From Escherichia phage_vB_EcoD_Punny: a stretch of DNA of 49,765 bases. Both the position numbers and the translations under genes were made by a program. Below, one piece after another: positions 16,293 through 48,230 of the stretch. The notes beneath the pieces are model-generated. The model did not search any database and was not told the origin of the DNA. It saw nothing but the letters and a program-made list of their open reading frames with translations. The DNA is taken from the sequence record OL539444.1. One strand, 5' to 3'. Positions within the stretch are counted from its first letter, which is position 1. Each line of letters opens with the position of its first letter.

Positions 16293-19200
16293 ATGATCAA
16301 AAATATGATAACTGGCAGTAAGGGCGGTTCTTCAAAGCCTCATACACCTGTTGAAATGGAAGATAACCTAATTTCAATTAACAGGATCAGAATTCTTTTA
16401 GCCGTTTCTGATGGTGAAGTTGATCCAGACTTTTCATTGAAAGATTTATATTTTGATGACGTTCCGGTTATGAATCAGGATGGTTCACTAAACTTTCAGA
16501 ATGTTAAAGCAGAATTCAGACCAGGGACGCAAACGCAGGATTATATTCAGGGGTTCACTGATACAGCCAGCGAAATTACTGTTGCTCGCGATCTGACGGC
16601 TGCAACTCCTTATATTATTTCCGTGACTAATAAAAACCTTTCCGCGATCCGTATTAAAATTTTAATGCCGCGAGGGTTTACGCAGGAGGATAACGGAGAT
16701 TTAACAGGCGTTCGCGTTGAATATGCTGTTGATATGGCTGTTGATGGTGCTGAATATAAAGAGGTTTTGTATGATGTAATTGAAGGTAAAACAATGAGCG
16801 GTTACGACAGAAGCCGCCGAATTGATTTACCTGATTTCAATGAGCGTGTTTTATTGCGCGTCCGTCGCCTGACAGATAGCACGTCAGCAAGGGTAACGGA
16901 TCTGATTAAAATGCAAAGCTATGCTGAAGTTGTAGACGCTAAATTTCGTTACCCACTGACTGGTTTAGTATATGTTGAGTTTGACAGCGAATTATTCCCT
17001 AATGCGTTGCCGAATATCAGCATTAAGAAAAAATGGAAAATCATTAATGTTCCGTCAAATTATGATCCTATTTCACGCACTTACTCAGGGTCATGGGATG
17101 GAACCTGGAAAAAGGCATGGAGTAATAACCCTGCTTTTGTTCTGTATGATTTGATTACCAATCAGCGTTACGGACTCGATCAAAGAGAATTAGGAATCGC
17201 GCTTGATAAATGGAGCATTTACGAATGTGCGCAGTATTGCGATCAGATGGTTCCAGACGGTAAAGGCGGAACAGAGCCGCGCTATCTTTGCGACGTTGTG
17301 ATCCAGAGCCAGGTAGAAGCGTATCAGCTTGTGCGTGATATTTGTTCAATCTTTCGAGGAATGAGTTTTTGGAACGGTGAGAGCCTTTCAATTGTGATCG
17401 ATAAGCCGCGCGATGCGTCATACATCTTTACTAATGACAACGTGGTTAATGGTGAGTTTACTTACACGTTTGCCAGCGAGAAAAGCATGTACACGCAATG
17501 TAACGTGACTTTCGACGACGAACAAAACATGTATCAACAGGACGTTGAAGGGGTTTTTGAAACAGAGGCGGCATTACGCTTTGGATATAACAGCACGTCA
17601 ATAACTGCTATCGGTTGCACACGACGCAGCGAGGCTAATCGCCGTGGGCGCTGGATTCTGAAAACCAACGTCAAGAGCACAACAGTAAACTTTGCTACTG
17701 GCCTGGAAGGTATGATCCCAACGGTAGGCGATGTAATTGTTGTTTCGGATAACTTCTGGTCAAGCGCTTTGACGCTGAATCTATCAGGTCGATTGATGGA
17801 GGTTAACGGGTTGCAGGTGTTCACGCCGTTTAAGGTTGACGCAAGAGCGGGTGATCGCATTCTGGTAAATAAGCCTGATGGTAAGCCAGTTGGTCGAACC
17901 ATTGCGCGTGTGAGCGATGACGGCAAAACGCTAACGCTAAACACAACGTTTGGCTTTGACGTTCAGCCTGACACCATTTTTGCAATCGAGCGAACCGATA
18001 TTGCACAGCAACGATATGTTGTAACTGGAATCACTAAGGGTGACGGTGATGAAGAATTTACCTACAACATAACGGCTGTTGAATACGATCCGAACAAATA
18101 CGATGAAATTGATTATGGCGTAAACATTGATGACCGTCCGACTTCAATCGTGCAGCCTGACATTTTGCCAGCACCGCAAAACGTCAAGATCGAATCTTAT
18201 TCGCGAGTTGTCCAGGGCGCGAGCGTGGAAACAATGCATGTTTCATGGGATAAGGTTGAATATGCAAGCCTTTATGAAATGCAGTGGAGAAAAGACAATG
18301 GCAACTGGAACAACACGCCGCGCACAGCCAACAAGGAAACGGAAGTTGAAGGAATTTATGCTGGTAACTATCACGTAAGGGTTAGATCTGTTGCAGCGAA
18401 TGGTTCAGCGTCTGGATGGTCTGCAATCGTAAGCGCAGGATTAACCGGAAAAGTTGGAGAGCCGGAAAAGCCAATTAACCTTACTGCGTCTGACAATGAA
18501 GTTTTCGGAATTCGCGTAAAATGGGGTATGCCAGAAGGAAGCGGAGACACGGCCTATATAGAGTTGCATCAAGCGCCAAACGGTGCTGATGGTCATCCTA
18601 TAGTTGACGAAGCAACGCTATTAACGCTTGTTCCGTTCCCGCAATATGAGTATTGGCATTCAATACTGCCAGCGGGTCATGTTGTCTGGTACAAGGCAAG
18701 GGCAGTTGACAAAATCGGTAACGTTTCTGATTGGACTGATTTTGTGCGCGGCATGGCTTCCGACGATACGAGCATTATCACGGATCATATTAAGGTCGAT
18801 ATTGAAAATTCTGATGGCTATAAGTGGTTGCAGGAAAACGCAATAAAGGCCAATGATAAGATCCACAGCACAGCGGAATCAGTGATTGAAAACGCATTAG
18901 CTAATGATAAAGATGTTCGACGTATGCGAGTTGAAAACGGAAAGCGTAAAGCGGAGTTCTTGCAATCGCTGAAACTCATTGCAGACGAAACAGAAGCTAG
19001 GGTAACGCAGGTCACTCAAATGAGTGCGCAATTTGACGAGAAATTAACGGCTCAAAATAGCGAATTGAGAGAGGTAATTGCTAACAGCACTGAAACCATT
19101 AGCCAAAGGATTGATCAGCTTACAGCTACGTTTGAGAGCGAAATTGATGGTGTTAAGCAGGATATCAAAGCACAGATAACTGATGTTAACCAGGCAATCA

Positions 19201-20069
19201 CCAATGAAGCGGAAGCGCGAGCGTCAGCGGATAGGGCGTTATCAACTCAAATTGGTGATACCCAATCAGCGGTTAACCAGAAACTTGATTCATGGGTTAA
19301 CGGAACAAGCGTTGGTGCGATGTACGGCGTTAAGTTGGGGATCAGGTATAACGGGCAGGAATATAGCGCAGGTATGGCGCTTTCTCTTGTCGCTGATGGT
19401 AGCGGAGTTAAATCACAATTCCTGTTTGATGCTGGACGATTTGCGATCATCAATAATGCTCAAAGCGGAGGTTTTACACTACCGTTTGTTGTTGAGAATA
19501 ATCAGGTGTTTATCAACAGCTTACTTGTGAAAAATGGCTCTATTGGTAACGCTCAGATTGCGGATCAGATTAACTCTAACAACTGGAGCAGCGGCGCGGC
19601 TGGATGGATGATTAATAAGAATGGTTATGCTGAATTTAACCAGATAACGGTAAGGGGTACAGTGTACGCAAACGCCGGATCATTCACTGGTAACGTTTAC
19701 GCTACTGATGGTTGGTTTAGGGGTACTGTTTACGCTGAAAAAATCGAGGGCGACGTTGCAAAGGCTGTTGTGCTTGGGTTTAACGGATCGGTTCACATTC
19801 CGGCAGTAAACTACAACAGACACCTTGTGATCCCTTATGTTGGTATTCACGGGTACACATATTCAGGTGGTACATGGGGCGGCGGTACTGTTTGGGTTAA
19901 TTCAACATATGGCGGTCGCCTTGCTAACGTTCAGGCAACTGCAATGCATGGCGGATCAAGTGGTTATGTTCTGTTGCCAGCGGGTAACGCAACTACGCTT
20001 TCATATGGTGGAAATCTAAACCACGCAAACGCAGTACCGATCTTAACAGTTCTGCTATTCAAAGCATAA
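16293..20069 (+). CDS. host specificity / tip attachment protein (lambda J-like)
   Basis: 1258 aa ORF in the J position, with fibronectin-III-like segments in the middle and a Gly-rich C-terminal domain. Confidence 0.85.
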   Translation: MIKNMITGSKGGSSKPHTPVEMEDNLISINRIRILLAVSDGEVDPDFSLKDLYFDDVPVMNQDGSLNFQNVKAEFRPGTQTQDYIQGFTDTASEITVARDLTAATPYIISVTNKNLSAIRIKILMPRGFTQEDNGDLTGVRVEYAVDMAVDGAEYKEVLYDVIEGKTMSGYDRSRRIDLPDFNERVLLRVRRLTDSTSARVTDLIKMQSYAEVVDAKFRYPLTGLVYVEFDSELFPNALPNISIKKKWKIINVPSNYDPISRTYSGSWDGTWKKAWSNNPAFVLYDLITNQRYGLDQRELGIALDKWSIYECAQYCDQMVPDGKGGTEPRYLCDVVIQSQVEAYQLVRDICSIFRGMSFWNGESLSIVIDKPRDASYIFTNDNVVNGEFTYTFASEKSMYTQCNVTFDDEQNMYQQDVEGVFETEAALRFGYNSTSITAIGCTRRSEANRRGRWILKTNVKSTTVNFATGLEGMIPTVGDVIVVSDNFWSSALTLNLSGRLMEVNGLQVFTPFKVDARAGDRILVNKPDGKPVGRTIARVSDDGKTLTLNTTFGFDVQPDTIFAIERTDIAQQRYVVTGITKGDGDEEFTYNITAVEYDPNKYDEIDYGVNIDDRPTSIVQPDILPAPQNVKIESYSRVVQGASVETMHVSWDKVEYASLYEMQWRKDNGNWNNTPRTANKETEVEGIYAGNYHVRVRSVAANGSASGWSAIVSAGLTGKVGEPEKPINLTASDNEVFGIRVKWGMPEGSGDTAYIELHQAPNGADGHPIVDEATLLTLVPFPQYEYWHSILPAGHVVWYKARAVDKIGNVSDWTDFVRGMASDDTSIITDHIKVDIENSDGYKWLQENAIKANDKIHSTAESVIENALANDKDVRRMRVENGKRKAEFLQSLKLIADETEARVTQVTQMSAQFDEKLTAQNSELREVIANSTETISQRIDQLTATFESEIDGVKQDIKAQITDVNQAITNEAEARASADRALSTQIGDTQSAVNQKLDSWVNGTSVGAMYGVKLGIRYNGQEYSAGMALSLVADGSGVKSQFLFDAGRFAIINNAQSGGFTLPFVVENNQVFINSLLVKNGSIGNAQIADQINSNNWSSGAAGWMINKNGYAEFNQITVRGTVYANAGSFTGNVYATDGWFRGTVYAEKIEGDVAKAVVLGFNGSVHIPAVNYNRHLVIPYVGIHGYTYSGGTWGGGTVWVNSTYGGRLANVQATAMHGGSSGYVLLPAGNATTLSYGGNLNHANAVPILTVLLFKA

Positions 20070-20170: not shown

Positions 20171-20245
20171 CACAACAAAAAGAACAAATAAAATATCTAT
20201 ATAATACATACACTTAAAGAATAATTATTATTATATATCTATATT
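20171..20245. repeat. conserved AT-rich intergenic element, copy A
   Basis: AAAATATCTATATAATACAT and ATAATTATTATTATATATCTATATT are identical to 40685-40704 and 40716-40740; followed by a GT-rich TGATTGATGG tract. Confidence 0.7.
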
Positions 20246-23155: not shown

Positions 23156-25438
23156 TTACTTAGTAAGCTGAACAAGCATTGCTTGCATTTCCGCAATTGC
23201 GGCTTTCATTTCTGCGATCTCGTTTTTCAACTCTTTAATTTCCTCCTGTTGAGCCTGAATAGTTTTATTCTGCTTATCTGAATCATCAATCATTTCATTG
23301 ATCGCGTTAACCAAAAGAGCAGTAATACCGCCATAGCTAACACCTAAATATTCTGAATCTGAAATCTTGTAAACCGCTTCCGGTAAAACAGTTTGCACGT
23401 CTTGAGCTATTACACCAGCCTCCTCCGAATAGAAAGAATATTCATCTTCATCAAGATTGTTGCGCTTAAAATAAGTGTAACCTTTTATTGATTTCACTTT
23501 TTCTTTAGCGCTTTCAATCTCTTTTAGGTTTGTTTTCAGGCGAATATCGGAAGTGTTAACCCATTGCACAGCAGACGCATAACCAGCATCGTTAAACCCA
23601 TAAACAGCGCCCCTTACATTAAAATGAGCCTCGCAACCTCCAGCGCCATATCTGGCAACATCTATACCAAAAGCCCAATCACCACCCCACCTTACAACCT
23701 TAACAACGTTAACGGCTACATCATCGCTTGGAAGTTCAACAAGCATACCAGCGGCGCGATCACGCCATGCAGTAAAAGCACCACCCTCAACATTTCCACC
23801 TATAAAGCAATTAGCGACACCGCGTCTAACTCCTTCAACATAAGCGAATCTAGCATCTTCTGGAGCAAGTGATTGAATAGTTCTGTATGCAATATTGCCA
23901 CTTTTTGTAAATGCAAACATCACTTGACTATCAGCAATTGCTTGAAGAATCCCATCTCCATTTTGCCTAAATCCAGTGTCTGTATCACCAATTACTAACG
24001 CATTACTTCCAAGCGCATTACCAATACCCCTACCGATAACTATTGAATTGTAATTTATCGCGTTACCGCTTTCATCAAATTGATAATAGTTTGTATCACC
24101 TCCTTCCCTAGTGACTTGTATTGTTGTTTTTGCTAATCCACCTTGAATTTCGTTGTAAATTCTTGAGTATGAAAGCTGTACATCTTCTGGACTTTTGTTT
24201 ATTAAATAAAGAATTCCAGAGTTTACAGAGTTTTTTTCTGTTAGTCTTATTCCTCTAAAAACAGGTATATCAGCCTCACCAATGCCAAAATTATTCCTTG
24301 CTTGGCTTACGTTTGCTGCACCTGTGCCGCCCTGTAGAATTCCAAGAGGAATATACTGTTGCGATGCGATATTCCAGTAACCCCAACCATCGTTACCAAC
24401 TGTAAGGTATTTGATCTTATCCGGCGACCGAATAAACGTTTCACCATCGCCCTGATCAAATCGGTCAATCTGGAAATTAATTCTTGCTTGCGTTACGTTT
24501 TCCGCACCAGTACCGCCAGCACCAACAGAAAGAGCGGATGTGCTGTTATCGCTATTTCTTGCAACTCGCCACTCGCCGTTGTTTGCGATCCGTAATTCAT
24601 AAGTCCATGCAGGGTTACGAAATGAGTTATAATCACCTGGATTTTGACCCTTAACTGAATTAACAGCCTCAACTTTCAGCGCCTCCCTTGCTAAATCTTT
24701 ATTAGCAAGATCATTAAGATTCTGATCCTTATGCAGAAGGTTTTCAGGGTTAACTTGTTGTGCCCATTGGCGAGCTTCATCACGCGCAGTTTCAGCGCCT
24801 TGTTTAGCGTTTCCGGCTGCATCGCGAGCATTAACAGCCTCGTTTTTAATTGATCCAATTTCAGCAACGGCGCTATCTTTTATTTGTTGCGTCTGCGTTT
24901 TTATTGCGTCAGTGTCTGCCTTAATCTGATTGGTTTCATTGACGGCAGCATCCTTAATCTGTTGAGTCTCAGATACAGCAGAATCCTTAATCTGTTGCGT
25001 TTCATTTTTTAGTTGCTCAGTTGCTGCTTTGTCGTTTGCTACCTGTTGAGCATCAGCATTAACCTTGTTAACTAAATCTTGCAATGTTTTCAGATCGAAG
25101 TTTTTAAAGAATTCAATTGCTTCCTCGATAACTGTTTCTTTACTTTGGTAATAACGCAGAGTTTCCGCTACATCTTGCGCCATTCCATCGACAGTTAACG
25201 AGTCATTCAACAGGATCACATAATTTCCGTTTTCTACTGGATCTCCGTCAGTCTGGATCGCTTTCATTTCCGTGTCGCTTACAATATCGCTGATAACCGC
25301 CAGCTTTAAAGGCGTGGTTAAAAAAACGATTGTTGCGCCAGTGCGAATAAGAGAAAGCGGCTCACGCCATTTTGTGCCAGTACCAGTGATAACGCCTTGC
25401 GCGTCCATCGCGGCGGTTCCAGTGCGATATAAAGCCAT
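23156..25438 (-). CDS. tail fibre with C-terminal intramolecular chaperone (S74-like) domain
   Basis: 760 aa; N-terminal 11-aa tandem repeats ([10 protein letters not shown]); C-terminal [12 protein letters not shown] region resembling self-cleaving chaperone domains. Confidence 0.7.
24872..25016 (-). repeat. 33-bp tandem coding repeats in tail fibre
   Basis: About four imperfect copies of ATCCTTAATCTGTTG..., encoding QQIKD-type repeats. Confidence 0.55.
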
Positions 25439-27274: not shown

Positions 27275-28162
27275 ATGATTCCTAACATTGAAAAACAGAT
27301 TGAAGAACTTGGAGCGGAAAAGATAAAGGCAATACAAAAACGCTTCACAGTTGGTGAAATTGTGCCTTACGAATATCAATGCGTTGCATACGCTGAAATC
27401 GCAAAGCGCTTGAGTAAGTATGTTGATCCGTTTTTCGTAAAAGCGGCGGTATCGGCTGGTAAAACAATCATCTTTGCTATGGTTGCGGCTCAGTGCCGTA
27501 AAATGGGGTTGAAAGCGTTATTTCTGGCGCGTCAATCTGAAATTGTGGATCAGGATTCAAAAGAGATTAGCGCCTTTGGTGTTCCGAATTCCGTTTATTG
27601 CGCTGGCCTGAATACCAAAAGCGCTTATTTCCCGATTGTTGTCGGATCGGAAGGCACTGTAATTGGTGGATTGAATAAAGCGTTGGGTGATTACGTCCCA
27701 CAAGTTTTAGGTATAGACGAATGTCATCAAGTCAACTGGAATGATATTGTTGAAGCCGAGGAAAACGGCGAAAGCATAGAGCAAATGATGACACCGAAAG
27801 GTGAACCAGTTGAAGGGAATCCGTTGCTGATTGGTTCAGGCCGCGCACAATACACCATTATCATTGCAGAAATGCGCCGCCGTTGCCTTGAGACTTACGG
27901 TCATCAGTTGCGCATATTTGGAATGACAGGATCGGAATATCGCGGAATTGAGCCGATACTTGTCGAAGATAAAAGAATTCCTGGGTTTTGGCGTGAGCAG
28001 ATCACAAACATTGATACTGATTACCTGGTAAAATTTGGTTCAGTTGTTCCCACTTATTTTGGCAATGTTGGTGATTTGGGTTACGACTTATCAGAATTTA
28101 CGCCAGTGAATGAATTTGGCGTTGCTGATTATGACCAGAAGCAATATAAAGGCCATGAGTGA
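27275..28162 (+). CDS. helicase ATPase domain protein (SF2-like, Walker A and DECH)
   Basis: AAVSAGKT Walker A and GIDECHQ motif II. Confidence 0.6.
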   Translation: MIPNIEKQIEELGAEKIKAIQKRFTVGEIVPYEYQCVAYAEIAKRLSKYVDPFFVKAAVSAGKTIIFAMVAAQCRKMGLKALFLARQSEIVDQDSKEISAFGVPNSVYCAGLNTKSAYFPIVVGSEGTVIGGLNKALGDYVPQVLGIDECHQVNWNDIVEAEENGESIEQMMTPKGEPVEGNPLLIGSGRAQYTIIIAEMRRRCLETYGHQLRIFGMTGSEYRGIEPILVEDKRIPGFWREQITNIDTDYLVKFGSVVPTYFGNVGDLGYDLSEFTPVNEFGVADYDQKQYKGHE

Positions 28163-29249
28163 CAAGATTCACCAATCAGGAACCATGACGCAGAAAATAA
28201 TGCAGATGGTTCACGAGGTGATGAAAAACCGCTTGTGCGCTCTTGTTACTTGCGCTGACGAAAGGCACTGCAAAGAGGCGGCGGCGGCGCTTCCGCCTGG
28301 CACGAAATATCACATTATCACCGGAAAAACTGGAGAGAAACAGCGGCGCTTATGGCTTGAGGATGCATATGAAGGGCGCGTTAAATACATCTTCCAGGTT
28401 CAGGCGCTAACAACTGGCGTGAACGTTCCTCCGTGGGATACTTCTGTTATTTTGCGCAAGATCGGAAGCCTGACGCTATTAACTCAGCTTTTGGGGCGCG
28501 GTATGCGTCAATTAAAAACTTACCATAAAGAAGTATTGGGAATGCACAAAACAGATCATCTTGTTTTGGACTTTTCCGGCACGATGTTTGAAATGGGTAA
28601 TTTGTATTTCGATCCAATGCTTGAGCAAGCGCAATTCCAGTTGCGTAAATCGCAGGATAAAGATCCGAAATTTTGCCCGATTTGCGGCACAGAAAATTCA
28701 TTCTATGCTCGCCGTTGCATTAATGAAGATGAAAATGGAAATCGTTGTGAGCACTTTTGGACGTTTCAAACGTGTGAGGATCAGATTGATGACCACACAA
28801 AGAAAGTTATTGTAAAAGGTTGCGGCGCAAAAAATGACGTTGCAGCGCGTGTATGCCGTTGCTGTAATGTTCAGTTACGCGATCCAAATGATAATTTATC
28901 CGGCAAGATGTACCGCAAAAATGATTGGTGCGACGTGTTAGATTTTAATGTGACGCTGACAAAAAACCAGGCTGGCGTAATATTCTGCTACACGTTGCGC
29001 GATAGTGGCGGCGTAGAATTCAGGGCATACGAAAAATATTTCCCTGAATCAGAACACAAGATATGCAAAACGCTTTGGACAAAGGCTGTTAGAACACACG
29101 TTATAGATCGCCAGGCCGCAAATTATATGATCACTTGCCGCAACGCAATTAAGATCATGAGTTATGCTGGACAAATATTGCCACCAAAGCGCGTTACGCA
29201 TCGCAAGAACACAAAGAAAGAAGATTTAATAGCACAGAAGGAATTTTAA
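28155..29249 (+). CDS. helicase C-terminal domain protein with zinc ribbons
   Basis: QLLGRGMRQ motif VI-like, then CPICG...RRC and CRCCN Cys clusters. ATG overlaps upstream stop in ATGAGTGA. Confidence 0.5.
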   Translation: MSDKIHQSGTMTQKIMQMVHEVMKNRLCALVTCADERHCKEAAAALPPGTKYHIITGKTGEKQRRLWLEDAYEGRVKYIFQVQALTTGVNVPPWDTSVILRKIGSLTLLTQLLGRGMRQLKTYHKEVLGMHKTDHLVLDFSGTMFEMGNLYFDPMLEQAQFQLRKSQDKDPKFCPICGTENSFYARRCINEDENGNRCEHFWTFQTCEDQIDDHTKKVIVKGCGAKNDVAARVCRCCNVQLRDPNDNLSGKMYRKNDWCDVLDFNVTLTKNQAGVIFCYTLRDSGGVEFRAYEKYFPESEHKICKTLWTKAVRTHVIDRQAANYMITCRNAIKIMSYAGQILPPKRVTHRKNTKKEDLIAQKEF

Positions 29250-29250
29250 T

Positions 29251-29658
29251 ATGGTTACTGATAAAGGCGATTATCTGGAGTATTACGACAAGTCAGATCC
29301 AGACGATAGGAAGGAGGAAGCGCACCAGGTTGATTCTTATTCATGGTTAACATATGAGTTTCCAATGTGGCTTGTTTGGCACACTAAAAACGAAGGGAAG
29401 AAAACAATAGGCACAGCAGTAAAGGATCAGCAAGCAGGTGTAAAAAAGGGAGTAAGCGACATTCTAATCCTGACTGGTTTTATTGGCTGCAAATATGCAT
29501 TCATTGCAATTGAGCTTAAACGAGCCAACAAGAAAGGAACGAAAGTAAGCCAGGAACAAAGGGAATTCTTGCGCCGCGTTAGGGAATGCGGAGGATTTGC
29601 CGCCGTATGCTATGGAGTAGAGCAAGTAAAATTGGCTATCGCAGACGCTACAAAATAG
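29251..29658 (+). CDS. VRR-NUC domain nuclease (putative)
   Basis: DILIL...IAIELK...EQ arrangement resembles the VRR-NUC D/E-K core; stop codon is the TAG of the next dyad motif. Confidence 0.5.
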   Translation: MVTDKGDYLEYYDKSDPDDRKEEAHQVDSYSWLTYEFPMWLVWHTKNEGKKTIGTAVKDQQAGVKKGVSDILILTGFIGCKYAFIAIELKRANKKGTKVSQEQREFLRRVRECGGFAAVCYGVEQVKLAIADATK

Positions 29659-41993: not shown

Positions 41994-42037
41994 ATAGCAC
42001 TTTTTGTTAAAACTCGATTGGGGTAGTTTGGCATAAT
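41994..42037 (+). promoter_or_regulatory. dyad-motif promoter unit P5
   Basis: ATAGCACTTTTTGTTAAAAC, 18-nt gap, TGgCATAAT between GGGGTA and TACCCC, leader CATCGAAACGAAACGAGG. Confidence 0.55.
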
Positions 42038-42068
42038 TACCCCATCGAAACGAAACGAGGAAAACACA

Positions 42069-42227
42069 ATGACTACCTTAATCACCTGGGAACACGAAAC
42101 AAGCCAGCCAGTAACCCGCGAGTTTGAAACTCTTAGCCAGGCTTATCTGCTGGCTGCTAACGGTGGTTATTACAAGGCTCAAGTTATTGATGAAATGGGA
42201 GTGATCGTTTATGAATTCCATGCATAA
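42069..42227 (+). CDS. hypothetical small protein (52 aa)
   Basis: ATG 31 nt after the P5 -10; below the track cut-off. Confidence 0.4.
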   Translation: MTTLITWEHETSQPVTREFETLSQAYLLAANGGYYKAQVIDEMGVIVYEFHA

Positions 42228-42492
42228 TTTCCGCAGCTACACGCAGGAAGTGGATTTTGATGGGATCAAGTTACCACTTCCTAACATATACCGCTATATC
42301 ACTCGTGATGAATACGGATTTATAAACGCATGGCGAGATAAGCCAAAAAAGGTTGGCAATGAATACGGCGACGGCTCAGAGATGCCGATCACGTTAGGTC
42401 ATCAAACTGGCGAAAATGTATCGGCTGTAATGCGCAAATATCGCCGCAGCCGCACAAACTCATTAATTTCTATCTTTGGCATACCGGAGTAA
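42211..42492 (+). CDS. hypothetical protein
   Basis: 93 aa ORF. Confidence 0.4.
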   Translation: MNSMHNFRSYTQEVDFDGIKLPLPNIYRYITRDEYGFINAWRDKPKKVGNEYGDGSEMPITLGHQTGENVSAVMRKYRRSRTNSLISIFGIPE

Positions 42493-42497
42493 TAAAA

Positions 42498-42755
42498 ATG
42501 TTTGAACTGAAACGCGTAACTGTTGAGATCCTGAATGATGGCTCTTACGATGGAATGAAACACTTAACCTTCCCGATCCGCATTGAAAATTGCATTGATT
42601 ATGGGATCGAAGTTGGCATGGTTGACGTTCCGCTTGATGCACTTATCGCGGCTGGCTATGACAAAGAGAAAGGCCAATGTGCTGATATACCGGATAGCTA
42701 TGAAAGCGACACACATTTCCCGTTCACATATGGAGAATGCCGGATTGTTGATTGA
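42498..42755 (+). CDS. hypothetical protein
   Basis: 85 aa acidic ORF. Confidence 0.45.
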   Translation: MFELKRVTVEILNDGSYDGMKHLTFPIRIENCIDYGIEVGMVDVPLDALIAAGYDKEKGQCADIPDSYESDTHFPFTYGECRIVD

Positions 42756-42828
42756 GGTGATAAAGTGAGCAGTTGGCACAATGAGCACGTAATGCAATTC
42801 TACCGCCACAGAATAAAGAAAATGCTAA

Positions 42829-42872
42829 ATAGCACGAATTGCTAAAACTAAATCAGGGGAATTTGTTATAGT
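42829..42872 (+). promoter_or_regulatory. dyad-motif promoter unit P6
   Basis: ATAGCACGAATTGCTAAAAC, 18-nt gap, TGtTATAGT flanked by AGGG/CCCT. Confidence 0.5.
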
Positions 42873-42905
42873 GCCCTCGTTGAGTTAAGCAAAGGAGAAT
42901 CAACA

Positions 42906-43460
42906 ATGTTAAGCATCGAAAAAATCAACTTCCCGATCACATTTAAAAATTGCGCTGACGGTAGAAATATTACATATCACAGTGAATACAGCAACGGCGT
43001 TTGGAGTAGCGGCGAGAAAAGCAGTCTTTCATTGCAATATTTCATTAAGCTGCATAATGAGCATAACCAAAGCAATAGTAATGTGTTGAGGTACTATTAC
43101 GAAATGGCAGAAAAACGCGAGGATAACGATCTGTTAGATGCGATGAAATATTTAAATATCAAGCCTGGCCAGGTTAATTTAAACGGTGCTGTGTTTACTG
43201 CGTCAGTAGGTGCTAAAGATTACGATTACATTTGCAAGGTTGAAAATATGCCAGTTGGCGCAACTCTGTTAGGTGTTCAGCGTGAAAATGGCGAATGGGA
43301 CGAGTTGAAATTTAAACCGCGCCGCATTGAAGTACACGACGATGTTATTTGCTTGCTTTCCGGTTATTCTGGAGGTTACAAGAGCGGCAATAATTACGGA
43401 GCTGAAATCAACATTAAGATCGGTACTAACGTAAAAATCAAAAACAGCACGAATTGCTAA
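42906..43460 (+). CDS. hypothetical protein
   Basis: 184 aa ORF with AAGGAGAA RBS; the C-terminal NSTNC and stop are encoded by the next dyad motif. Confidence 0.5.
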   Translation: MLSIEKINFPITFKNCADGRNITYHSEYSNGVWSSGEKSSLSLQYFIKLHNEHNQSNSNVLRYYYEMAEKREDNDLLDAMKYLNIKPGQVNLNGAVFTASVGAKDYDYICKVENMPVGATLLGVQRENGEWDELKFKPRRIEVHDDVICLLSGYSGGYKSGNNYGAEINIKIGTNVKIKNSTNC

Positions 43461-43486
43461 AACAAATTAACGGCCTTGCGATATAG
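43443..43486 (+). promoter_or_regulatory. dyad-motif promoter unit P7
   Basis: ACAGCACGAATTGCTAAAAC, 18-nt gap, TATAGT in the loop of GGCCTT/AAGGCC. Confidence 0.55.
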
Positions 43487-43519
43487 TAAGGCCATACCAA
43501 ACAAACCGGAGAAGTTAAC

Positions 43520-43696
43520 ATGAAATTATATGGTGTCGCTGGAATCGCTTTCTTTTCTTTGTGGATTGCTGCAATCGCTGGCTGGATCATGAATATCGTT
43601 GAAATGTTTGGCGATATCACAACCAACGAATTAATCATTCGCGCAATCGGGATATTCGTTGCACCTGCTGGCGCATTAATGGGCTGGTTCATGTAA
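43520..43696 (+). CDS. small membrane protein (58 aa)
   Basis: Two hydrophobic segments; CCGGAGAA RBS. Confidence 0.4.
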   Translation: MKLYGVAGIAFFSLWIAAIAGWIMNIVEMFGDITTNELIIRAIGIFVAPAGALMGWFM

Positions 43697-46771: not shown

Positions 46772-46946
46772 ATTTATTGGTTTTGTGGCATTGCTTTTGT
46801 GCGGCATATTGCTTACTGACAATGACACTTGGCAAAGTGCTGTTGGCGGCTTACTTATTTTTCTTGCTGGTGGCATGGTTGGCAGTGATGACGCAGCAAA
46901 CAAGAATAAACTTTCAGATCATTTACGCAGAGAGACAAAACGATGA
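46764..46946 (+). CDS. small membrane protein (60 aa)
   Basis: Two hydrophobic segments. Confidence 0.35.
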   Translation: MIRFIGFVALLLCGILLTDNDTWQSAVGGLLIFLAGGMVGSDDAANKNKLSDHLRRETKR

Positions 46947-47188
46947 ATAGAAAAATGCTGGTACGAGCATTCGCAAAGATTGCTAAAAGATGGGGTGATT
47001 CAGCTAAAACGCCTTACACGTTTAGCCGATACGGTTATAAAAATGCTCGCGCCTGGGGTCGCTGCATTGCTGATAACTACAACTCCGAAATGATGGAAGA
47101 TTTTGCAAAGTGGATTGATACGCCTTTGAAGGATTGGTGTCAATTTGACTATGACTATTTCGCAGAAGAAGAAATTTCTTGTTGGTAA
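46943..47188 (+). CDS. hypothetical protein
   Basis: 81 aa ORF. Confidence 0.4.
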   Translation: MNRKMLVRAFAKIAKRWGDSAKTPYTFSRYGYKNARAWGRCIADNYNSEMMEDFAKWIDTPLKDWCQFDYDYFAEEEISCW

Positions 47189-47200
47189 GGAGAATAAAAT

Positions 47201-47698
47201 ATGAAAGCTAAAAATGATTTTTATAACTACCTGACAAAAGGCCGTGACTATACCGTTTTGAATAGCATAGATACTCTTTACCTGGTTGTTGCTGATAATG
47301 GCGTTAGAGTTTGGCTTGATAAAACTCTTTTCGAAAGCGAGCACCTAAGCAACGCAAAGCGGATCGCAGATGAAGCAAGCGCATTAGCAGAGCGTGAACG
47401 AATTCGCGATATAGTAGCGGAGCAGGTTAGAAATTCATGTTCGCCTGGTGGCGATATCTTCAAATCAATGCGCGGTGAAATGACGGTTGGAATTCAAGAT
47501 CGCGTAATTTCAAAGTCAGTTGATTCTGTAATTGAGAATGCGCGATTCAATGCGTTGATTAACTCAGAGCATAACGAATACGTCAAAGCATTAGAGCAAC
47601 TGCGTGAAGTGCTGCGAGTGCCGGAAGGTGAAAATATTGTGACTCATGCAAAGGTTGTAAGAGCGTTGGCTGATGCGCTGATTGGTCTGCAAAAATAG
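47201..47698 (+). CDS. hypothetical protein
   Basis: 165 aa ORF with AAGGAGAA RBS; stop is the TAG in the next motif. Confidence 0.5.
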   Translation: MKAKNDFYNYLTKGRDYTVLNSIDTLYLVVADNGVRVWLDKTLFESEHLSNAKRIADEASALAERERIRDIVAEQVRNSCSPGGDIFKSMRGEMTVGIQDRVISKSVDSVIENARFNALINSEHNEYVKALEQLREVLRVPEGENIVTHAKVVRALADALIGLQK

Positions 47699-47738
47699 CA
47701 CTTTTTGTTAAAACTTCCGCGAGGGCATTTGTTAAAGT
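47695..47738 (+). promoter_or_regulatory. dyad-motif promoter unit P12
   Basis: ATAGCACTTTTTGTTAAAAC, 18-nt gap, TGtTAAAGT in the loop of GAGGGCA/TGTCCTC. Confidence 0.55.
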
Positions 47739-47772
47739 GTCCTCATTGAAGCGAAACACGGAGATTTAGGAA

Positions 47773-47982
47773 ATGGCTGTATACACTGGCAAAATGTTTG
47801 AAAGCGAAAACCCGATTTACGGCGGCACTTATGAGCTAATCATTGATGAAGATCGTGTAATCCTGGCTGACGACGATAACCAGGAATATTACGAAGTAGA
47901 AGCCGATAAATGGGATAACGATGTTATGTTTCTTGTTGATAATAGCCACATCAAGTTTTATGCAGTGGAGGAAGAAGAATGA
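47773..47982 (+). CDS. hypothetical protein
   Basis: 69 aa acidic ORF. Confidence 0.45.
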   Translation: MAVYTGKMFESENPIYGGTYELIIDEDRVILADDDNQEYYEVEADKWDNDVMFLVDNSHIKFYAVEEEE

Positions 47983-48230
47983 TCACAATCAACCTATCAG
48001 AAGAACAAGCGAAATCATTGTTGCGCGGCCTGGGCTGGCGAATGGGTAGCGGTAGCGAGGCGGTTGTAAACATCAAAGAGGAAGTAGCAAAAGAGCTTTT
48101 TGCACAGCTTGAGCATAAACTGATGCCAGCATCAACAAGCGCGGCGGAGTTGGCAGTATGGCGGCATGAAAACGGCCTTAATGAAATGGACGTTGAGAAG
48201 TGGAAACGTAAAAAACGGAAAAGCTGTTGA
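47979..48230 (+). CDS. hypothetical protein
   Basis: 83 aa ORF. Confidence 0.4.
   Translation: MITINLSEEQAKSLLRGLGWRMGSGSEAVVNIKEEVAKELFAQLEHKLMPASTSAAELAVWRHENGLNEMDVEKWKRKKRKSC

Follow-up and report, generated by a model that had tools for sequence, protein, structure and literature searches.

The locus examined here raises the question of whether a phage helicase that occupies two overlapping open reading frames (ORFs) is genuinely an enzyme of two polypeptides, or a single gene whose frame has been broken. The sequence studied is that of Escherichia phage vB_EcoD_Punny (OL539444, run SRR17231382), a member of the genus Tlsvirus (Drexlerviridae, T1-like phages), and the window is the whole 49,765-nucleotide (nt) stretch of that record. 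A preliminary description assigned a superfamily 2 (SF2) helicase to ORFs at 27275-28162 and 28155-29249, which overlap by 8 nt in different frames, and allowed for either a true split helicase made as two translationally coupled polypeptides or a frameshift, biological or sequencing in origin, that separates one gene. The ORFs, their overlap and the distribution of motifs between them are as that description gave them, and it is the second of its two readings that holds. The two-ORF helicase is a known single gene with a lesion of one base that only one GenBank record carries: there is almost certainly one gene, helA, whose frame is shifted by a private A at 28146, with the two ORFs arising by coincidence. 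The wider interest of the case lies in relatives in which the helicase is divided by a split intein.

The two reading frames and the base that divides them

The RadD-like SF2 helicase gene helA lies on the plus strand at 27275-29249 and measures 1975 nt here, against a single ORF of 1974 nt and 657 amino acids (aa) in relatives. ORF1 (27275-28162, plus strand, 295 aa) comprises HelA residues 1-290, followed by five frameshifted residues, YKGHE, and a TGA stop codon, and ORF2 (28155-29249, plus strand) comprises HelA residues 294-657, which amount to 364 aa from the ATG at 28155. The first RecA-like domain, with AAVSAGKT (motif I) and DECH (motif II), and the inter-domain linker are encoded by ORF1, where Pfam ResIII matches residues 29-156 (E 6.8e-9, 36.3 bits against a cut-off of 22.5 bits). 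ORF2 contributes the second RecA-like domain, with QLLGRGMRQ (motif VI), two zinc-binding clusters whose cysteines fall as FCPICG..RRC..NRC..TCE..GCG..VCRCC, and a C-terminal domain; Pfam Helicase_C matches its residues 22-118 (E 2.2e-7, 31.6 bits against a cut-off of 23.5 bits). With the domain of motifs I and II in ORF1 and that of motif VI in ORF2, the gene belongs to the SF2 helicase/ATPase superfamily. Complementary enzyme halves placed head to tail in this way are no matter of chance. The opposite strand at the locus holds only short unsupported ORFs of at most 84 aa.

The frameshifting lesion is an extra A at 28146 (plus strand), outside any homopolymer run, where CAAT[A]TAAAGG stands against CAATTAAAGG in relatives; within 28140-28155 the allele with the extra base contains CAATATAAAGG. 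Aligned over the 1975-nt gene, Punny and the intact gene of Citrobacter phage BlueShadow differ at this A and nowhere else. The preliminary description had asked whether a frameshift near 28110-28162 would restore a single frame, and removal of the A in silico does so: the result is one ORF of 657 aa, and its product has the same sequence as BlueShadow gp30 and agrees with Tls HelA at 644 of 657 residues. The insertion is private in genome-wide comparison with BlueShadow, ZeroToHero and Reinasaurus, and a 21-mer carrying it had no matches in IMG/VR, JGI metagenome contigs or GTDB genome contigs (the wild-type 20-mer had eight in IMG/VR).

The relatives hold the gene in one piece, a point that the same description had proposed to check. 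Megablast of the region places the Citrobacter phages BlueShadow, ZeroToHero and Reinasaurus nearest, at 99.9% identity, and each of the 50 records with 100% coverage matches over 1974 nt rather than the 1975 found here; nucleotide identity of helA is 95-99.9% to 40 records. Five inspected records have one helicase coding sequence of 657 aa (Tls HelA). The helicase of Tls (HelA, YP_001285548) and gp30/gp31 of BlueShadow, ZeroToHero and Reinasaurus, annotated as 'ATP-dependent DNA helicase', are the same gene in the same place, and they differ from Punny's in that none is split and only the Punny ORF is broken by an extra A. A 120-nt query across the junction matched 51 phage records, none of which (0/51) has the extra base, and in nine of nine independent ENA/Logan contigs encoding an identical VRR-NUC protein a single 657-aa helicase gene precedes it. 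At greater distance, 1496 of 1641 phage records found by tblastn contain 80% or more of the protein at a single location, and each of the matches listed is one unbroken piece, even at the 27% identity of Brucella phages. It should be noted that the single-ORF norm was established by tblastn, as a homologue search with ORF1 returned 17 mostly fragmentary matches from which the full-length cluster was absent. Variable sites among 11 distinct Tlsvirus gene sequences are distributed over the codon positions of the single frame as 26/21/197, the peptide ..DYDQKQLKAMSDKIH.. that spans the junction is conserved among Tlsvirus genes, and helA is under purifying selection as a single ORF.

Broken copies of the helicase occur elsewhere, but they are sporadic and their break sites differ from that of Punny. 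In Salmonella phage 36 the loss of 1 nt at window-equivalent 27617 breaks the helicase into products of 129 and 521 aa, and a Salmonella third-party annotation (TPA) contig carries a broken helicase with partial products of 332 and 314 aa. Salmonella phage seszw and Vibrio phage 1240, considered as possible two-feature helicases, have single genes with trivially overlapping neighbors.

These comparisons bear directly on the idea that the helicase of this phage group is normally split into two translationally coupled genes. Such a design would fit the neat ATGAGTGA overlap and the position of the division, between the two RecA-like domains, yet no relative has a two-ORF arrangement at this site, and the conserved two-gene overlap that would have made the arrangement ordinary is found in none of the junction-covering phage records and in none of the nine metagenome/Logan contigs. 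The base responsible for the split is precisely the one by which relatives of 99.9% identity differ, and all other Tlsvirus members and the more distant homologues have a single ORF, with the other broken copies scattered elsewhere in the gene. An evolved split is refuted by this comparison and we consider it extremely improbable; the division is instead a lesion private to one record and not a conserved arrangement.

The tidiness of the division follows from where the A falls. The shifted upstream frame reaches a TGA 16 nt past the insertion, and the codon for Met294 lies 9 nt past it. The downstream frame stays open and holds this codon, and therefore two tidy ORFs result, overlapping by ATGAGTGA at 28155-28162 (plus strand), an 8-nt segment that combines the ORF2 start codon and the ORF1 stop. 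The 3' end of ORF1 reads AAA GGC CAT GAG TGA and ORF2 opens, one frame further, as ATG AGT GAC; the same bases in relatives are ATG AGT GAC (Met-Ser-Asp) within the single ORF. Only Leu291, Lys292 and Ala293 are lost, with YKGHE in their place, and the split looks tidy because the break sits at the inter-domain linker just before a Met codon that is conserved in homologues of 36-69% identity (..KAM.., ..QAM.., ..EKM..). When all single-base insertions into the intact gene were simulated, 2.5% gave an equally clean split, defined as the loss of three residues or fewer with an ATG within 8 nt of the stop. The overlap is an accidental consequence of the frameshift. The longest mechanical version of ORF2 opens at the ATG at 28110 (379 aa), and GenBank begins the protein at 28155 (UGO52177.1, 364 aa, 'putative DNA helicase').

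A programmed +1 ribosomal frameshift that restores the full-length protein would be another way to reconcile two frames with one enzyme. A shift anywhere in 28110-28159 joins the frames, and a slip of the lysine transfer RNA from AAA (28148-28150) to AAG gives in silico a complete 657-aa product, ..QKQYKAMSDK.., with the single change L291Y. This site is the product of a private insertion and hence holds no conserved recoding signal, no significant RNA structure lies nearby (fold z = -0.55), and an A/T run long enough for transcriptional slippage is absent. The codon that follows the slip site, GGC, is a common one rather than one that is slowly decoded, which also counts against a +1 shift. 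Programmed recoding is not credible, with low-level leakiness the most that might be expected, and we give a programmed shift that supplies the full-length helicase hardly any probability.

A RadD-like protein and the position of the break

The repaired protein aligns by phmmer with E. coli RadD (PDB 6JDE) over residues 31-546 (E 2.4e-33), and the alignment is continuous across the junction. It also matches PHROG 16, 'DNA helicase'. Against the NCBIfam RadD profile (NF053632) it scores 164.6 bits (E 2.8e-48), where the equivalog cut-off is 720 bits; ORF2 aligns over profile positions 227-562, and the alignment reaches position 562 of 573, so that the C-terminal domain is included. Because the score lies far under the equivalog cut-off, the protein is described as RadD-like and not as a RadD equivalog, and its sequence argues for a RadD-like phage SF2 ATPase that is a paralogue-like relative of RadD rather than RadD itself. 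RadD is organized as two RecA-like domains, two zinc fingers and a C-terminal domain (PMC9049331), and HelA shares with RadD (YejH, an SF2 ATPase of DNA repair; PDB 6JDE / 7R7J) the domain order from the first RecA-like domain through both zinc-binding regions. The two proteins differ in that HelA is only ~25-30% identical, has an extra insertion within domain 1, and has a 7-residue insertion at the junction.

The zinc-binding regions can be compared residue by residue. The cysteines of RadD are C384, C387, C411 and C425 in the first finger and C434, C437, C448 and C451 in the second (PMC9049331). All four cysteines of the first finger are aligned, with CPIC, NRC and TCE of the phage protein opposite CPAC, RRC and QCD of RadD. 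In the second finger three of the four align (GCG, VCR, CCN), and C434 stands opposite a Val with an extra Cys adjacent.

In RadD the nucleotide lies at the interface of both RecA-like domains, and its contacts are motifs I and II of domain 1 and Arg343, in motif VI of domain 2 (PMC9049331). Because the adenosine triphosphate (ATP) site spans both domains, an enzyme of two chains must rebuild its active site. The position of the break in the fold can be gauged from P0024, a homologue of 69% identity whose sequence runs across the junction; its AlphaFold model has a confident domain 1 followed by a ~35-residue low-confidence coil and places the junction-equivalent LKAM inside the first helix of domain 2. 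The model is only moderately reliable (mean predicted local distance difference test score of 72, from a shallow alignment of 13 sequences), and it indicates that the break lies at the predicted inter-domain boundary.

Origin of the extra base

A base that is private to one record may have arisen in the record or in the phage, and on balance we infer that the extra A is probably an error of the deposited consensus. The genome announcement describes Illumina reads assembled de novo in Geneious at default settings, with coverage of 59-246x (PMC9119101). In this reading the assembly would have added one alignment column, which would have entered the deposited consensus as the extra A, and the real phage would make a normal full-length helicase. 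In the 47,912 nt that Punny and its three nearest relatives have in common, just two differences are private to Punny, a single-nucleotide polymorphism (SNP) at 19899 and the insertion at 28146. Mishu (OK499984) and Devorator (OL539461), two genomes from the same study, are identical over 49.7 kilobases (kb) except for an 'N' inserted at 20220 in Mishu. This column can only be a consensus-calling artefact, and therefore the same pipeline is able to add a false column.

The sister assemblies contain further lesions of the same kind. In BlueShadow, gp24 is cut to 72 aa, against 96-110 elsewhere, by a private 1-nt deletion (TT to T, window-equivalent 21829), and there is also an N at window-equivalent 44908; in Reinasaurus the loss of 1 nt from an A-run (window-equivalent 43817), again private, breaks an ORF of 108-122 aa. 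One private frameshifting indel each is found in three of the four sister assemblies. The Punny lesion resembles those of BlueShadow gp24, the small Reinasaurus ORF and the Salmonella phage 36 helicase, each a private 1-nt indel in a conserved ORF, and it recalls the inserted N of Mishu. It differs from these frameshift-broken genes in that it leaves two intact, domain-sized ORFs with a stop/start overlap, so that it looks designed.

Several observations weigh against an error of the consensus. With Illumina coverage of 59-246x and a site outside any homopolymer, an indel error in the consensus would be unusual. The lesion also occupies the least damaging position, with three residues lost and an ATG restart that overlaps the stop, as would be expected of a viable real mutant. 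The rate of 2.5% for clean splits is compatible with a real mutation and does not favor it; taken as support for a selected real mutation, that rate is cancelled by a per-site comparison of error and mutation rates.

A real, recent mutation private to the isolate, which would have arisen in sewage or during plaque purification, is a possible though less probable origin. Beyond the depth of at least 59x at a non-homopolymer site, it draws on the history of the isolate: Punny was isolated on E. coli BW25113, plaque-purified and raised to >1e8 PFU/mL (plaque-forming units per mL; PMC9119101), which means that a lesion, if real, has to be one that the phage tolerates, and this one does minimal damage. 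In the modeled homologue the break follows the ~35-residue low-confidence linker and meets RecA-like domain 2 at its first helix, and it coincides with the 7-residue insertion of the phage proteins relative to E. coli RadD. By estimate, the three private indels against ~13 private SNPs in the four sister genomes are not clearly above the natural rate. Against a real mutation stand the absence of the allele from all the other collections and records searched, the maintenance of the single ORF under purifying selection in >1400 phage records, and the demonstrable deposition of spurious inserted columns by the same study.

If the base were real, either of two situations might apply. The helicase might be dispensable in the laboratory and the gene a fresh pseudogene; a literature search returned nothing on the essentiality of this helicase in T1-like phages. 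Alternatively, both fragments might be made and assemble non-covalently into an active enzyme, with ORF1 translated from the normal ribosome-binding site and ribosomes terminating at the TGA at 28160-28162 and re-initiating 5 nt upstream, on the ORF2 ATG. Their activity in trans would be uncertain, as the ATP site needs motifs I and II from domain 1 together with motif VI from domain 2. A weak Shine-Dalgarno-like element, AAGG at 28149-28152 (plus strand), corresponds to Lys-Ala codons in relatives and lies just 2 nt before the ATG at 28155; separate initiation there would probably be poor, given this bad spacing. A promoter and terminator scan of the junction found no internal promoter or terminator between the two halves. 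It is doubtful that the A is real and that Punny also grows normally on a two-polypeptide helicase, with termination-reinitiation at ATGAGTGA and an ATP site rebuilt in trans. Were this so, the phage would show, by a single natural mutation, that this SF2 core can withstand fission at its inter-domain linker, and would capture how a split gene could arise; a real base would in general amount to a natural fission of an SF2 enzyme, of modest interest, and not to a new system.

Exact look-ups of ORF2 and of the tail fibers gp27 and gp22 in Logan-derived data found no gene on record, and the Punny run may be absent from those data or masked there. In the cluster tables, the proteins private to Punny come from NCBI only, and the private alleles of BlueShadow and Reinasaurus are also present in Logan. 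The practical consequence lies mostly in the record itself: what OL539444 annotates as 'putative DNA helicase' is just the C-terminal 364 aa, and the record merits a check against the reads.

Split-intein relatives, neighboring genes and other variation

A helicase in two pieces does occur in other Drexlerviridae. In phage ES (OR466728, 4001-7135), and also in AN_ECEAS (PP944860) and in the protein clusters P0034 and P0029, the helicase is a 'fractured gene' with a split intein. The first ORF of ES (269 aa) consists of the N-extein to ..AIDE followed by IntN (CLTGDTM..) and is mis-annotated as a 'minor tail protein'; the middle ORF is a free-standing LAGLIDADG_2 endonuclease in another frame; and the third ORF, mis-annotated as an 'ssDNA binding protein', consists of IntC (..VVAHN) followed by the C-extein from CHMVD... 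Trans-splicing in ES would be predicted to rebuild motif II, DECH. The likeness of Punny to fractured genes of this type (Dassa et al. 2009, PMC2677866) is that the orthologous helicase is in two pieces in ES and AN_ECEAS. The difference is that their split falls inside motif II (DE|CH), is flanked by the intein halves, and recurs in several independent assemblies. A Pfam search of the Punny ORF1 and ORF2 found no intein or Hint domain, and the break is at residue 291.

Broken copies can themselves seed spurious protein families, such as phrog_34481, and can mislead searches for split or recoded genes. This family ('unknown function', 132 positions) matches the helicase over residues 1-123 only (27275-27643; E 1e-74), and it looks like a family built from the N-terminal stubs of frameshift-broken helicases, for example SP36_67 of Salmonella phage 36.

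The gene downstream of helA encodes a VRR-NUC nuclease (29251-29658, plus strand) and starts 1 nt past the helicase stop; PF08774 was matched on the identical protein in the nine contigs. Upstream lie genes for an exonuclease, a recombinase, SSB, a primase and a regulator, the last two on the other strand, and VRR-NUC and Dam follow downstream, in an order that is identical in the relatives inspected; together these genes make up a conserved module for replication and recombination. RadD has been described as an SSB-stimulated ATPase that speeds RecA strand exchange (PMC8887467, PMC10238739). The RadD homology and this gene neighborhood suggest that HelA probably works on branched intermediates of recombination or replication.

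The remaining differences among these phages lie mostly in tail fibers and in larger blocks. The SNP at 19899 falls in the tail fiber gene at 16293-20069 (plus strand) and reads AAT against GAT, so that the central tail fiber (1258 aa) has Asn in place of Asp at residue 1203; the change might bear on the isolation of Punny on E. coli and not on Citrobacter, or it might be a further problem of the consensus. A second tail-fiber gene (23156-25438, minus strand), whose C-terminal domain is Peptidase_S74, differs in length between phages owing to internal repeats, especially at ~24330-24820. Punny encodes a product of 760 aa, as against 712 aa for BlueShadow, where it is annotated as 'DNA primase', and 774 aa for both ZeroToHero and Reinasaurus; the range in metagenome contigs is 611-793 aa. 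The genomes of Mishu and Devorator come from isolations on E. coli and Citrobacter freundii, respectively, and the pair represents either the same phage recovered on two host genera or carry-over within the laboratory. A similar case is Punny, from E. coli, at ~99.98% identity to BlueShadow, ZeroToHero and Reinasaurus, from Citrobacter. The 151 private differences of ZeroToHero all lie in one 1.4-kb stretch (window 46797-48210), a clustering that suggests a recombinational mosaic patch, and Reinasaurus is without a 1.7-kb stretch that is present in Punny (window 42014-43694).

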